Virus genome (UHGV): UHGV-0210060
Length of the DNA stretch: 40,776 bases
Origin: a virus
Strand: one strand, 5' to 3'
A program made the translations under genes and the position numbers. Under the pieces are notes generated by a model. It was not told where the DNA came from and did not search any database. It saw only the letters and a list, made by a program, of their open reading frames with translations. Below, one piece after another: positions 6,106-21,542 of the stretch; positions within the stretch are counted from its first letter, which is position 1; each line of letters begins with the position of its first letter.

Positions 6106-6966
6106 TCACCTGTCGAAAAACACGTAGCCAGTTTTCGATACGGTGATTGCGGATGATGGTTTGGATTGTGGTTGAATGGTTTCTGGCTTCTCGTCGTTCC
6201 AGCGTTGACCGTTCAGGTAGCTCGATGGTAACAACCTGTCGAATCCGAACTGCTTACCATTCCTGCATGCGATGTCTTCTGCCAGCATCGTGGCAAACTC
6301 GCTTGCCGTACCCCTGGTAGTTTTACGCCATTCCCTGAACTGTGTTCTGAATGCCGAAGCTGCGTTTTTCTTCCCGGCCTTCCGCATGCCTGCACACCAG
6401 AATATTTCCTCGAATGCCTTGTCGGTTTCTTCGTGACGGTCAGGTGATTTTTCACACTCCGTCCGAACACTTTCGGACATAGTGTTTTTATTATTTCTTT
6501 TTTCTTTTGTAATAGTTTCTTTTGTGTGTCCCTGTTTTGGTGACAGCGCTGTCACCGTTTTGGTGACACTTTTTGTCACCAATGCAGTGACATTATCACC
6601 AGAGTAGTGACACCCTTCGATTTGCCATTCCTCGATGTTCTTGTTAGGCCCGATTTGCTGGCCTTCGCGAAGGATAACCTTCATCGCGATAAGCTCATTC
6701 TTGGCCTTGTTTACCTTCTGTCTTGGCAGCCTGGTAATTTGAGCTAACTGACTATCAGAGATGCGATCCATCTTTTTACCGTAGCCGTATGTTTTACGGC
6801 ATATGGCGTGGGCAACCTTGCTCTGATTTTTCGTTAAATCTGCGCCGATAAGCTCTTCATACAGGGCATTTGCAAGACGGGTATAACCATCTTCAACTTC
6901 TGCCACACGACGCTCCACAGGCCGTTGTGAAGGCCTTAAATGTGTTACGGTTGCAAGATTACTCAT
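6106..6966 (-). CDS. replication initiator, lambda O-like N-terminal domain with divergent C-terminus
   Basis: N-terminus aligns by eye to lambda O ([26 protein letters not shown]...[20 protein letters not shown] ... GPNKNI.EW ... [10 protein letters not shown]); iterons lie inside the gene. Confidence 0.85.
6480..6620. repeat. origin of replication: AT-rich tract plus iteron-like TGACA/TGTCA repeats inside the O-like gene
   Basis: 6481..6530 is A/T-rich; 6538..6616 has repeated GGTGACA / TGTCACC units (ttttggtgacagcgctgtcaccgttttggtgacactttttgtcacc...), the arrangement seen at lambda ori. Confidence 0.65.
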
Positions 6967-7522: not shown

Positions 7523-7568
7523 TCGCTTTTCAGCGACGTAGGACGAATGTCCGTTGTTACAAAGAGCG
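7523..7568 (-). promoter_or_regulatory. nutR-like site (boxA + boxB hairpin with GAAA loop)
   Basis: Minus-strand reading: CGCTCTTTGTAACAAC (boxA-like), GGACattcGTCC hairpin, then TCGCT-GAAA-AGCGA; lies between cro stop and cII. Confidence 0.55.
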
Positions 7569-7575
7569 TGGTTAC

Positions 7576-7809
7576 TTATGCAGCTGATGCTCTACGCGAT
7601 ACGAACACCAGGTTTTCCTTTTTCACAGGTTTATAAGCCGTGAAATTACGAGTAGCTTCCTCGATTGCATTCGCTTTATCAGGGGAAGCTCTTCGAAATC
7701 CATATGCAATCTGGTCAAGATAGCCAACTGAAGTTTTCGCTAATGCGGCGAGTCGCTTCCATTCCTCACTAGAAGCCTCTTTTCGCCAGCGTAGTAGTTC
7801 ATTACTCAT
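7576..7809 (-). CDS. cro: Cro-like repressor
   Basis: 77 aa; divergent from cI across an operator-rich intergenic region; first gene of the early-right operon. Family assignment is positional. Confidence 0.65.
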   Translation of the reverse strand: MSNELLRWRKEASSEEWKRLAALAKTSVGYLDQIAYGFRRASPDKANAIEEATRNFTAYKPVKKENLVFVSRRASAA

Positions 7810-7922: not shown

Positions 7923-8627
7923 ATGGAAAACAAAGATATTCGCAAGTCGAATCTGGCGTTTTTGCTAGATGAGCATAAAAAAATCGCGGGTAACACTAAT
8001 GCAAGCTTTGCCGATAAGCTTGGGGTTAGCCCTTCTCAACTCACGCAAGTCTCCGGTGAAAAAAGCACGCGAAACATAGGGGATAAACTAGCAAGAAAAT
8101 TTGAAGCCGCACTTGGGTTACCTAATGGGTGGCTTGATTTGGTACATGATGTAACACCAATTGCATCATGCTCAGATTCTTTAACTTTTGTCGGTCAGGT
8201 AAGAAAAGGGTTAGTGCGCGTGGTTGGTGAGGCAATTCTTGGTGTTGATGGTGCCATCGAGATGACCGAAGAGCGCGATGGGTGGCTCAAAATTTATAGC
8301 GATGATCCAGATGCCTTTGGTCTTCGTGTGAAAGGAGACAGCATGTGGCCCAGAATAAAATCAGGAGAATATGTGCTCATTGAGCCTAACACCAAAGTAT
8401 TCCCGGGTGATGAGGTGTTTGTCAGAACCATCGAAGGACACAACATGATCAAGATTCTTGGCTATGACAGAGATGGAGAATACCAGTTTACAAGCATCAA
8501 CCAGGACCACAGACCAATAACGTTGCCTTATCATCAAGTAGCAAAGGTGGAGTATGTGGCTGGTATTCTGAAGCAGTCACGCCATCTGGATGACATCGAG
8601 GCAAGGGAGTGGCTGAAAAGTTCGTGA
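7923..8627 (+). CDS. cI: CI-type repressor (HTH + S24 LexA-like autopeptidase domain)
   Basis: 234 aa; C-terminal GDSMWPRIKSGEYVLIEP ... GDEVFVRT ... MIKIL fits the S24 Ser/Lys fold; divergent from cro. Confidence 0.85.
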   Translation: MENKDIRKSNLAFLLDEHKKIAGNTNASFADKLGVSPSQLTQVSGEKSTRNIGDKLARKFEAALGLPNGWLDLVHDVTPIASCSDSLTFVGQVRKGLVRVVGEAILGVDGAIEMTEERDGWLKIYSDDPDAFGLRVKGDSMWPRIKSGEYVLIEPNTKVFPGDEVFVRTIEGHNMIKILGYDRDGEYQFTSINQDHRPITLPYHQVAKVEYVAGILKQSRHLDDIEAREWLKSS

Positions 8628-9296: not shown

Positions 9297-9307
9297 TGCC
9301 TACATAA

Positions 9308-9333
9308 CCCGGCCTCAGCGCCGGGTTTTCTTT
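9308..9333 (+). terminator. intrinsic terminator ending the cI-side transcript (tIMM-like)
   Basis: CCCGGC-ctcagc-GCCGGG followed by TTTTCTTT. Confidence 0.7.
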
Positions 9334-9469: not shown

Positions 9470-9560
9470 CACCATAAAAATCAATATCATATTTGAAAAT
9501 CAAAAGAATTTATCATTTTGCTATTGTCATTAATTTATCATTCCGATAAAGTTTACCCAT
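9470..9560 (+). promoter_or_regulatory. OL / PL region
   Basis: aaTTTATCAttttgctattgtcattaaTTTATCAttccGATAAAgt: same half-sites as OR; candidate promoter TTGTCA-17-TAAAGT reading toward N. Confidence 0.5.
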
Positions 9561-9598
9561 CAGCAGGACGCTGGAAGCCAAACGGAACAGACTGGCAT

Positions 9599-9644
9599 GC
9601 TCTTTAAACAACGTCGAACACTCGACTACGTGGCTGAAAAGCCA
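9599..9644 (+). promoter_or_regulatory. nutL-like site (boxA + boxB hairpin with GAAA loop)
   Basis: GCTCTTTAAACAAC, GTCGAacacTCGAC hairpin, then TGGCT-GAAA-AGCCA; same three-part layout as the nutR candidate. Confidence 0.55.
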
Positions 9645-9667
9645 GCTCACCCAACCACATAAGCTGT

Positions 9668-9717
9668 GGGATGCAATGCCGAAGCAACCGCCTCAGGAGT
9701 AGCTTCGGGATTGCATC
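9668..9717 (+). other. long hairpin in the N leader (16-bp stem with one mismatch, 16-nt loop)
   Basis: GGGATGCAATGCCGAAGC ...16 nt... GCTTCGGGATTGCATC, ending 25 nt before the N start codon. Confidence 0.6.
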
Positions 9718-9742
9718 ACCAGAGTTTATTCGGGAGGAATCT

Positions 9743-10015
9743 ATGTCCAGAAAAACAGAATTTAAAGGCACCGCAGCTTCTCGCCGTAGAGCTCGTCGTG
9801 CAAATCTGCAAAGTCAGGAGGCGATCAGCTCCGACAAGCTACACAGGCCAACCCCTTCACGAGTGGTCTTGCAATGCAAGCGCAAACCAGCAATGAGAGC
9901 AGAAGTAATAACACTGACAACGTTGACCAGAAAATATGAAGGCTCAACTTGTCTTCCAAACGTAGCTATTTACGCGGCAGGCTACCGGAAATCAAAACAA
10001 CTGACGGCGAGGTAA
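9743..10015 (+). CDS. N: N-type antiterminator (arginine-rich motif)
   Basis: GGGAGG RBS; MSRKTEFKGTAASRRRARRANLQ arginine-rich N-terminus; C-terminus AIYAAGYRKSKQLTAR resembles P22 gp24 (ALYAAGHRKSKQITAR). Confidence 0.8.
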   Translation: MSRKTEFKGTAASRRRARRANLQSQEAISSDKLHRPTPSRVVLQCKRKPAMRAEVITLTTLTRKYEGSTCLPNVAIYAAGYRKSKQLTAR

Positions 10016-10380: not shown

Positions 10381-10570
10381 GGGGGTGAGAGGATTTTACT
10401 ATTTTTCTCGCTGTAGGGGTACACGAGAACCACCGAGCCTGATGTGGTTAAAAGACAGGCATACGAATAAACACTGCACTGTGTATTCATTCCAACGAGT
10501 GAATACACGGAGCAATGTCGCTCGTAACTAAACAGGAGCCGACTTGTTCTGATTATTGGAAATCTTCTTT

Positions 10571-10594
10571 GCCCTCCAGTGTGAGGGCTTTTTT
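10571..10594 (+). terminator. intrinsic terminator (tL1-like) preceded by a 9-bp-stem hairpin
   Basis: GCCCTC-cagtgt-GAGGGC + TTTTTT; upstream hairpin GTGTATTCA...TGAATACAC at 10479..10507. Confidence 0.7.
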
Positions 10595-21258: not shown

Positions 21259-21320
21259 GTTGGTTTTTCTCCACGGATTTACCGACAACCGAAGCCCTGA
21301 CTGTTCCAGCAGTTGGGGCT

Positions 21321-21542
21321 TCAACGTTTTTGTAAGTCACTGTAGCTATAAAGCCACTGACCACTCATTTTTGATTTGATTGACTCTACTGAGTCACGGC
21401 AAGGAATGATTCCGCCTGACATCATTCTGATTTCCGTAAATTCACCACTCCTTATCGATTCAATGCCATCAATGTTAACTAAAGATTTACCTCTACCACG
21501 TGCATTCTCATAGCCAATCTCATCAACCTCAATAAACCTCAT
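21321..21542 (-). CDS. hypothetical protein (73 aa) between arc and ant
   Basis: ATG overlaps arc stop (ATGA); no motif recognised. Confidence 0.45.

Follow-up and report, generated by a model that had tools for sequence, protein, structure and literature searches.

A lambdoid phage PL leader with an H-19B/933W-class nutL site and a lambda-type N-leader stem, plausibly under RNase III control

The window analysed, the 40,776-nt virus genome UHGV-0210060, harbors at positions 9559–9742 what is read here, with a probability of roughly 0.7, as the PL leader of a lambdoid phage, in which a nutL site of the H-19B/933W class is followed by an N-leader stem of the lambda type with putative RNase III control. 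Judged by its sequence, the source genome is a mosaic lambdoid phage of E. coli. The region is real but ordinary, as it combines a known nut type with a conserved lambda-type leader stem, and nothing in it falls outside known kinds. This follows from the presence of annotated nut sites in relatives, from a spacer hairpin of the H-19B type and from a leader stem of the lambda type.

The + strand of the window corresponds to lambda's leftward direction. The genes cI, cro and cII are arranged in the order seen in lambda, and N lies downstream of a PL-like promoter. The features that frame the leader are as follows.

7437–7138, − strand: cII (Pfam Phage_CII)
7809–7576, − strand: cro
7923–8627, + strand: cI, 234 aa, Peptidase_S24
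9306–9327, + strand: terminator, preceded by two small ORFs, downstream of cI
9524–9552, + strand: PL-like promoter from a consensus scan (−35 TTGTCA, 17-nt spacer, −10 TAAAGT)
9559–9607, + strand: conserved 5′ end of the PL transcript, with a small hairpin (GCCA 9577–9580/UGGC 9593–9596) just before boxA
9732–9737, + strand: Shine-Dalgarno sequence of N, GGGAGG, 2 nt past the base of the long stem and 5 nt 5′ of the ATG
9743–10015, + strand: N gene (ATG 9743–9745), 90 aa, MSRKTEFKGTAASRRRARRA..., with the arginine-rich motif AASRRRARRA at the N terminus of the protein

The PL-like promoter sits within H-19B-like operator repeats and is near-identical to the region upstream of the H-19B N gene. 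Alignment with the lambda and H-19B leaders places the start of the PL transcript at A9559 of ATCAGCAGGACGC, leaving a leader of 184 nt between this start and the N ORF. The first 48 nt of the transcript showed 92–96% identity to many otherwise different lambdoid phages, and the record of phage CUS-3 labels the conserved transcript-start stretch as a ‘boundary sequence’. The GCCA/UGGC hairpin 5′ of the nutL boxA was present in the minimum free energy fold. Two minus-strand ORFs (9513–9650 and 9604–9771) were considered as genes and found to be unsupported; they overlap conserved RNA structure.

The immunity region of the window (operators, cI, cro and cII) is H-19B-like and not Sakai-like, while N, nutL and two parts of nutR, its boxA and its boxB loop, resemble those of Sakai. 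The mosaic has one junction at the conserved ATCAGCAGGACGC transcript start and the other between the cro stop codon and the nutR boxA. Hence, the nut sites travel with N and not with the immunity region.

The protein encoded by N matched the Pfam family PF25694 (N_peptide) with 110 bits against a cut-off of 27.9, residue 1 of the protein corresponding to position 5 of the profile, and it also matched PHROG 271; NCBIfam contained no model for N. Identity to N of H-19B was 40%, with matching N- and C-termini, and the window protein is 37 aa shorter in the middle. N was 98–100% identical in more than 350 IMG/VR contigs. Together with its leader, it was ∼95% identical to its counterparts in many Stx-converting phages, among them VT2-Sakai, Stx2 phage 1717, Nil2 and the PA series; among 5426 complete E. 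coli genomes, 1651 had a match to the region.

An earlier note on this DNA had described one layout for both nut candidates, i.e., a boxA-like CGCTCTTT, a short GC hairpin and a 5-bp stem with a GAAA loop. The layout was indeed present at both sites, and the boxA sequence proposed was right for nutR; the boxA of nutL, however, begins with T and not with C. The components of the two sites are given below.

9598–9606, + strand: nutL boxA TGCTCTTTA, 9/9 against the rrn boxA UGCUCUUUA
9608–9612, + strand: ACAAC, conserved flank between the nutL boxA and the spacer hairpin
9613–9626, + strand: nutL spacer hairpin GTCGA-ACAC-TCGAC, of the ‘reducer’ type
9627–9630, + strand: TACG, between the nutL spacer hairpin and boxB
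9631–9644, + strand: nutL boxB TGGCT-GAAA-AGCCA, 5-bp stem with a GNRA tetraloop
7568–7560, − strand: boxA CGCTCTTTG of nutR (whole site 7568–7523, between cro and cII), 7/8 against the lambda boxA
7552–7541, − strand: nutR spacer hairpin GGAC-ATTC-GTCC
7540–7537, − strand: TACG, between the nutR spacer hairpin and boxB
7536–7523, − strand: nutR boxB TCGCT-GAAA-AGCGA, 5-bp stem with a GAAA loop

With T as its first base, the nutL boxA is identical to the rrn boxA consensus, which has been quoted as UGCUCUUUA (PMC2724277). Exact GCTCTTTAA occurred once in the window. A composite pattern, GCTCTTT..ACAAC..TACGTNGCTGAAAAGC, gave two exact matches in the window, which were nutL and nutR on the expected strands, and none in 100 shuffles. 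Both sites lie on the transcribed strand, nutL downstream of PL and nutR downstream of cro, and both possess dyad symmetry between boxA and boxB.

Pairing in the nut stems was counted by explicit enumeration over the window, the Sakai type, the H-19B type and three metagenomic phages (L110, L180 and L187); a MAFFT alignment of whole sites was left unused, as the arms of GACAA and GAAA boxB elements were misaligned in it. For the spacer hairpin, five unrelated and fully paired stems were found among the natural variants (GTCGA/TCGAC, GGAC/GTCC, GATTC/GAATC, GGTGA/TCACC and GGCC/GGCC). They enclose loops of 3–6 nt, of which at least nine different ones occur at the same place, between constant ACAA(C/T) and TACG flanks. 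In relatives, the stem of the nutL spacer hairpin is invariant and its loop varies (ACAC, CTC, ACTC, ATC and GCAC). The boxB stem likewise exists in five variants, all of them paired (TGGCT/AGCCA, TCGCT/AGCGA, AGGCT/AGCCT, TAGCT/AGCTA and GCGCT/AGCGC), with pairs 1 and 2 varying in a compensatory fashion. The boxB loop was observed to follow the arginine-rich motif of N, GAAA being accompanied by G[TS]A[AS][SG]RRR[AE]RRA and GACAA by GNSRSRRRERLK in H-19B; similarly, the GACAA loop of P22 is paired with the N motif GNAKTRRHERRR. The assignment of nutL and nutR as genuine nut sites is thus supported by every sequence criterion that could be tested. No Rfam family covered nutL or the leader at either gathering or permissive thresholds.

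The nut sites of H-19B (AF034975) have the same layout as those of the window: boxA, ACAA(C/T), a short hairpin, TACG and boxB. The H-19B nutL reads ...ACAAC-GATTC-GAATAT-GAATC-TACG-GCGCT-GACAA-AGCGC and its nutR CGCTATTTTCACAAT-GGAC-ATTC-GTCC-TACG-TCGCT-GACAA-AGCGA, the hairpin GGAC-ATTC-GTCC being identical to that in nutR of the window. The two phages differ in the boxB loop, which is a GACAA pentaloop in H-19B and a GAAA tetraloop, with one C fewer, in the window. They also differ in that the nutL of H-19B lacks a recognisable boxA, whereas the boxA in nutL of the window is a perfect rrn consensus. In work from 2000, Neely and Friedman reportedly named the spacer stem-loop of H-19B a ‘reducer’, in which pairing alone matters and the flanking nucleotides are brought together; the dyad is said to have been tested there with mutants and compensatory mutants, and H-19B N to have been less dependent on boxA and NusB. 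The natural variation of the spacer hairpin described above fits a reading in which pairing and not sequence is important. The reduced requirement for boxA, NusB and S10 may not hold here, as is suggested by the perfect boxA; the role of this boxA is uncertain, since N of H-19B is reported to depend less on boxA and NusB. The presence of ‘two hairpins’, spacer and boxB, in nutR of H-19B has been described (Muteeb et al., 2012, PMC3526286), and Neely and Friedman (2000) are cited for ‘alternative NUT RNA structures’.

The closest annotated relatives are of the VT2-Sakai/933W type, with N 98–100% identical, a leader ∼95% identical and a nutR identical from boxA through boxB. As the VT2-Sakai record (AP000422) annotates the homologous sites as ‘putative N-utilization leftward’ (boxA to boxB) and ‘rightward’, both nut sites are already part of the public annotation. 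Their nutL shares with the window the same boxB, spacer-hairpin stem and long stem, but differs in the first base of boxA (G against T in the window) and in the spacer loop (CTC, 3 nt, against ACAC, 4 nt). In the window, moreover, G9708 closes one extra pair of the long stem.

In lambda, the order of elements is the same: the PL start ATCAGCAGGACGC, boxA, boxB, a small CAAAG/CUUUG hairpin, a long stem, the Shine-Dalgarno sequence and N. The lambda stem has homologous basal arms, the same bulged purine and a base that abuts the ribosome-binding site. The differences lie in the spacer, which is linear in lambda and contains a hairpin in the window; in the boxB loop, a pentaloop (GAAGA/GAAAA) in lambda against the 4-nt GAAA; in the length of the leader, 223 nt against 184 nt; and in the stem domain, which is ∼110–160 nt long with a branched apical part in lambda and a simple hairpin of 71 nt in the window. 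Already in 1985, Franklin is said to have noted that what lambda, phi21 and P22 conserve is ‘form but not sequence’.

The boxB of the window also resembles that of P22, whose complex with the N peptide (PDB 1A4T) shows a 5-bp stem ending in ..GCU/AGC.., and a GNRA-like loop read by an arginine-rich helix, as in the window. The P22 boxB has a GACAA pentaloop with the C looped out of the GNRA-like fold (PMC12550061); the GAAA of the window equals the P22 loop without the extruded base, i.e., a canonical GNRA tetraloop. The corresponding N motifs are G-T-A-A-S-R-R-R-A-R-R-A in the window and G-N-A-K-T-R-R-H-E-R-R-R in P22. On this comparison of sequences, the GAAA boxB is a variant within a known kind. 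In the literature search, no paper discussing a GAAA tetraloop boxB was found, nor any treating 933W and boxB together. The N proteins of the 933W/Sakai class may recognise a true GNRA tetraloop boxB without an extruded base. If so, recognition would differ from that in lambda, where the fourth base is extruded, in P22, where the third base is, and in phi21, which has a hexaloop, and the contact with NusA might be affected.

A further parallel is provided by the rrn leader of E. coli, with its boxA UGCUCUUUA identical to that of nutL. The G/U-rich boxC position of rrn supplies one strand of an RNase III helix, the stem formed by leader and trailer (PMC8632103). Antitermination in rrn operates without N or boxB, and the partner strand of its helix lies 1.5 kb away, in contrast to the local hairpin of the window.

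Downstream of nutL, the leader forms a long hairpin. The earlier note had proposed a 16-position stem with one mismatch ending 25 nt before the N start, and such a stem was found, ending at 9717 with the ATG at 9743; it is the inner part of a larger helix of ∼25 bp. The elements of the helix and a small alternative hairpin are as follows.

9659–9729, + strand: long N-leader stem-loop, ∼25 bp, 71 nt, with an apical loop of 16 nt (9686–9701)
9670–9685/9702–9717, + strand: inner inverted repeat, 15 Watson-Crick pairs and one G.G mismatch (9678/9709)
9666/9722, 9678/9709 and 9718, + strand: imperfections of the long stem, i.e., two G.G mismatches (1x1) and the bulged A9718
9655–9669, + strand: alternative hairpin CCACA-UAAGC-UGUGG, the UGUGG of which is also part of the long-stem base

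An inverted-repeat search returned 9670–9688/9699–9717 with 89% complementarity, the highest of 13 in the window. Folding of the leader RNA, which the earlier note had put forward as a check, bore the hairpin out. The fold gave z = −6.0 against dinucleotide shuffles, none of the 200 shuffles being as good, and pair probabilities within the helix 9659–9729 were 0.89–1.0. The predicted free energy of the long stem was −39.6 kcal/mol alone and −44.6 kcal/mol with an extension onto the Shine-Dalgarno sequence, in which the G residues 9732, 9733, 9736 and 9737 pair with CC..CC at 9651–9656 (unpaired probability ≤0.05). The helix is thus predicted to extend weakly onto the Shine-Dalgarno sequence. 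With a cut assumed in the 3′ arm, the 3′ fragments folded at only −8.6 to −10.5 kcal/mol; the predicted accessibility of the Shine-Dalgarno sequence was not clearly better, and it was only the stability of the competing structure that fell.

The stem had also been called near-perfect. This is true for the window, which represents a minority variant: position 9708, a G here, is an A in 28 of 31 distinct relatives, where a 2x2 internal loop results. Within the family of the window, substitutions avoid paired positions (6/70 against 16/60 at unpaired positions, Fisher p = 0.009), and the one indel is located in the apical loop.

To place the stem among lambdoid leaders, viral contigs were scanned for the conserved PL transcript start CATCAGCAGGACGC. 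The scan gave 120 hits, about half of which were chance 14-mers and were removed; an earlier contig scan with N-based patterns had yielded four loci only, the patterns being too specific. The leaders recovered were those of lambda, H-19B, P22-type, phi21-type and other lambdoid types, and they share a common plan consisting of the transcript start, boxA, boxB, a small CCAAAG-loop-CUUUGG hairpin, a long stem, the Shine-Dalgarno sequence and N. Their 5′ stem arm begins at CUUUGG and is followed by a variable apical insert, and the 3′ arm ends with a bulged purine and CCAAAG. The stem domain ranges from 67 to >300 nt, and its 3′ end usually lies 0–16 nt before the start codon. The stem of the window, CUGUGG-GAUGCAAUG.../...CAUUGCAUC-A-CCAGAG, aligned with that of lambda, CUUUGG-GGUGUGUG.../...CACACACC-A-CCAAAG, and the basal arms could be aligned across lambda, H-19B, P22-type and phi21-type leaders.

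Covariation was evaluated on an alignment of the basal arms (22 nt and 23 nt, joined) from 55 distinct lambdoid leaders. In this alignment, 85% of the cells were paired, against 32–44% when the partner was slid by 1–3 columns, the fraction paired being inflated somewhat because the 5′ arms were picked as the best complement to the motif-anchored 3′ arm. This picking should not inflate changes on both sides relative to the slid controls; such changes were found in 229 cells, against 70 ± 8 in shuffles, and in 16 of the 22 pairs. The observed covariation score was reached by none of 500 shuffles. Owing to the alignable basal arms, the covariation over 55 leaders and the substitutions that avoid pairs, the long stem is very probably a short homologue of the lambda N-leader stem and not a mere analogue. 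The suggestion in the earlier note that the hairpin is the equivalent of that in the lambda N leader is in agreement with these results, as the two share the position beside the ribosome-binding site of N, alignable arms, the same bulged purine and covariation.

In the mechanism proposed for the leader, the boxA of nutL would be recognised by NusB/NusE, and the spacer hairpin would draw ACAAC and TACG together. Through its arginine-rich N terminus, N would presumably dock on the GAAA tetraloop of boxB. Through nutL and nutR, RNA polymerase would acquire N and the Nus factors and then read through the early terminators. The 5′ arm of the long stem lies at the boxC position, and the base of the stem ends 2 nt before the Shine-Dalgarno sequence. 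By homology with lambda, the intact stem would restrain the translation of N and tether nutL to the region where N begins, and cleavage by host RNase III would relieve this restraint, thereby coupling N synthesis to host physiology.

In lambda, Kameyama and co-workers reportedly showed in 1991 that the RNase III-sensitive stem has its base beside the ribosome-binding site of N, and that processing or deletion of the stem increases N synthesis. Approximately two helical turns of double-stranded RNA are needed by E. coli RNase III, for which ∼25 bp is long enough; ∼25 bp are predicted for the helix of the window. The account given in PMC5725501 attributes to lambda a repression of N translation by N and Nus factors bound at NutL (Wilson, 1997, cited therein), along with a highly structured leader between NutL and N, the repression being modulated by RNase III (Wilson, 2002, cited therein). 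Cleavage and its translational effect have been demonstrated for lambda only. Since the stem of the window is homologous to that of lambda, it is plausible that RNase III cuts it and that N translation is thereby controlled, and the odds lean slightly towards such cleavage having an effect on N. The sites of cleavage need not be conserved, as the stem measures 71 nt against ∼110–160 nt in lambda and lacks the variable apical insert. A search of the open-access literature gave no paper connecting RNase III with N of Stx phages or with the N-leader.

A pointer from another phage comes from the small RNA P22B of P22, which is 96 nt long, with a 3′ end 16 nt upstream of gene 24, the homologue of N in that phage (2026 study, PMC13397905). 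P22B was found to match exactly the 3′ two-thirds of the stem in a P22-type leader (locus L189), its 3′ end coinciding with the 3′ base of the stem. It may be taken as an independent hint that homologous leaders are processed. The lambda-like model is considered the most likely one owing to the lambda precedent, the same geometry and this hint of processing from P22B.

The main alternative is that the stem is purely structural and not a substrate of RNase III, serving to compact the leader or to occlude the Shine-Dalgarno sequence. In one form of it, compaction would let the N/Nus complex at nutL reach and repress the N start; in another, the Shine-Dalgarno sequence would be hidden until the ribosome or polymerase opens the stem. 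The structured leader of lambda has been proposed to make the loop between nutL and RNA polymerase compact (PMC5725501). The predicted pairing of the Shine-Dalgarno G residues points in the same direction, and the conservation of the form of the stem over apical lengths of 67 to >300 nt fits a need for a helix and not for a specific cleavage site. This alternative is nevertheless unlikely, as a helix of ∼25 bp is long enough for E. coli RNase III, the processed fragment of P22 ends at the stem base, and the lambda stem, of which the basal stem is a homologue, is tied to RNase III in work cited by PMC5725501.

Less probable still, and by a good distance, is a stem that acts as the precursor of a stable trans-acting small RNA like P22B, its position before N being incidental. 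P22B does accumulate in infected cells and in vesicles, and it coincides with the homologous stem. However, the apical sequence differs between phage families and conservation is confined to the basal helix, a pattern that speaks against a sequence-specific target in trans; no target of such a small RNA is known.

That the hairpin region is coding, with N initiated at the in-frame ATG 9671 to give a protein of 114 aa, is highly improbable. The frame is open from this ATG to N, the record of an Stx1 phage (AP005153) annotates N as 345 nt, and the PHROG 271 profile has 59 additional N-terminal positions. The ATG at 9671, however, has no Shine-Dalgarno sequence and lies inside the stem, whereas the ATG at 9743 is preceded at 5 nt by the strong GGGAGG. 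The alignments to Pfam N_peptide and to H-19B N both begin at residue 1 of the 90-aa protein, VT2-Sakai annotates an N gene of 273 nt, and in one relative a 1-nt deletion in the apical loop breaks the frame upstream of N. Readings of the hairpin as a fortuitous inverted repeat or as an intrinsic terminator have next to no standing: although 13 inverted repeats of at least 14 nt occur in the window, the fold has z = −6 and conservation of the stem in lambdoid phages is accompanied by covariation, and the terminator was rejected, with no U-tract after the stem and no call by the terminator scan.

Within the lambda-like model, the small hairpin upstream of the long stem deserves mention. Lambdoid leaders have a conserved arrangement of a 5′ copy, a middle segment and a 3′ copy, with covariation between the first two of these; the triple CCAAAG/CUUUGG/CCAAAG reads CCACA/UGUGG/CCAGAG in the window. 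This triple may act as a co-transcriptional switch, in which the base of the long stem would displace a small upstream hairpin formed earlier. Such displacement would time the occlusion of the ribosome-binding site, or the cleavage by RNase III, relative to the loading of N at nutL. Taken jointly, the co-transcriptional leader switch and the recognition by N of a true GNRA boxB without an extruded base are regarded as tentative and, on balance, doubtful.

The finding matters little beyond annotation, for which it provides four confident labels: PL leader, nutL, N-leader stem and an N start at 9743. The start at 9743 corrects records that place it at the upstream ATG. For the specialist, the points of interest are a natural GAAA-tetraloop boxB accompanied by a distinct arginine-rich motif in N, and a boxA of rrn consensus in an H-19B-type nut site. 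The minimal N-leader stem of 71 nt could serve as a convenient substrate for the study of RNase III control of N in Stx phages. In these phages, N drives early gene expression and thus acts upstream of toxin production.

The leader of the antiterminator gene N carries, between nutL and the N Shine-Dalgarno sequence, a long stem, and one strand of its base has an alternative pairing partner. Three related segments, 5' CCAAAG, middle CUUUGG and 3' CCAAAG, were found in all lambdoid PL leaders, both in the window and in the loci from the viral-contig scan. The leader features of the window are as follows.

9577-9596: small hairpin GCCA...UGGC, directly upstream of the nutL boxA
9655-9669: 5' copy and middle segment of the three-segment region (middle segment, 9664-9669)
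9719-9724: 3' copy of the three-segment region

The middle segment has two possible partners: with the 5' copy it forms a small upstream hairpin, with the 3' copy the long stem's base. Its changes across the lambdoid PL leaders are tracked by the 5' copy at least as well as by the 3' copy. Paired variants of the 5' copy and the middle segment include CCAAAC/GUUUGG and CCGAAG/CUUCGG, with CCACA/UGUGG in the window. This choice of partner, together with the covariation of the 5' copy, suggests that the two structures are mutually exclusive, and the arrangement may possibly act as a co-transcriptional switch.

The P22 small RNA P22B, whose sequence is published (PMC13397905), lies within the leader of gene 24, the N homologue. 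It matches leader positions 116-211 of the P22-type viral contig L189 exactly, a region homologous to window ∼9690-9731. P22B takes in the long stem's 3' two-thirds and stops at the 3' base of that stem; this coincidence suggests, at the level of sequence, that processing of the leader stem yields a stable fragment.

An in-frame ATG at 9671 would extend N to 114 aa (window 9671-9742); it sits inside the stem, and this form was rejected as spurious. N is annotated in an extended form (345 nt) in AP005153, and similar extensions probably explain why the PHROG 271 profile is longer by 59 positions at its N-terminal end.

The hairpin at 9577-9596 was absent from the three-part nut layout described in the earlier note. 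Lambda has CACC-AUGAA-GGUG at the same position, and a hairpin upstream of boxA is also kept in phi21- and P22-type leaders.

Comparison of window 7523-7600 and 9520-9575 with H-19B (L001) and VT2-Sakai (L086/L088) showed H-19B-like immunity genes and operators combined with a Sakai-like N and Sakai-like nutL and nutR. The nutR of H-19B differs from that of the window mainly in boxA and in one boxB-loop C lost in the window (GACAA to GAAA). The left mosaic junction falls at the conserved transcript start, which is annotated as 'boundary sequence' in CUS-3. The window's E. coli phage N was also found at 96-99% identity on JAJXBQ010000280.1 and JAJXBQ010000254.1, two contigs of one MAG labelled Segatella copri; mis-binning of enterobacterial phage contigs is the most likely explanation.

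Further elements lie outside the leader.

6527-6592: three copies of the inverted-repeat unit TGTCACC-N5-GGTGACA, inside the O-like gene region
10382-10461 (+): stretch near-identical to P22 antisense RNA 'sas' in its 3' part
10471-10518: inverted repeat, 3' of the 'sas'-like stretch
10571-10588: terminator-like hairpin, 3' of the 'sas'-like stretch
21259-21326 (+): sar RNA (Rfam RF00262), full-length match, 88 bits (gathering score, 43)

The three repeat copies look like replication-origin iterons. The 'sas' RNA belongs to the P22 sieB region, and its sequence is listed in PMC13397905. In P22, sar is the antisense RNA of the ant/immI region, and its full-length match here indicates, as judged from sequence, that the phage carries a P22-type second immunity region.
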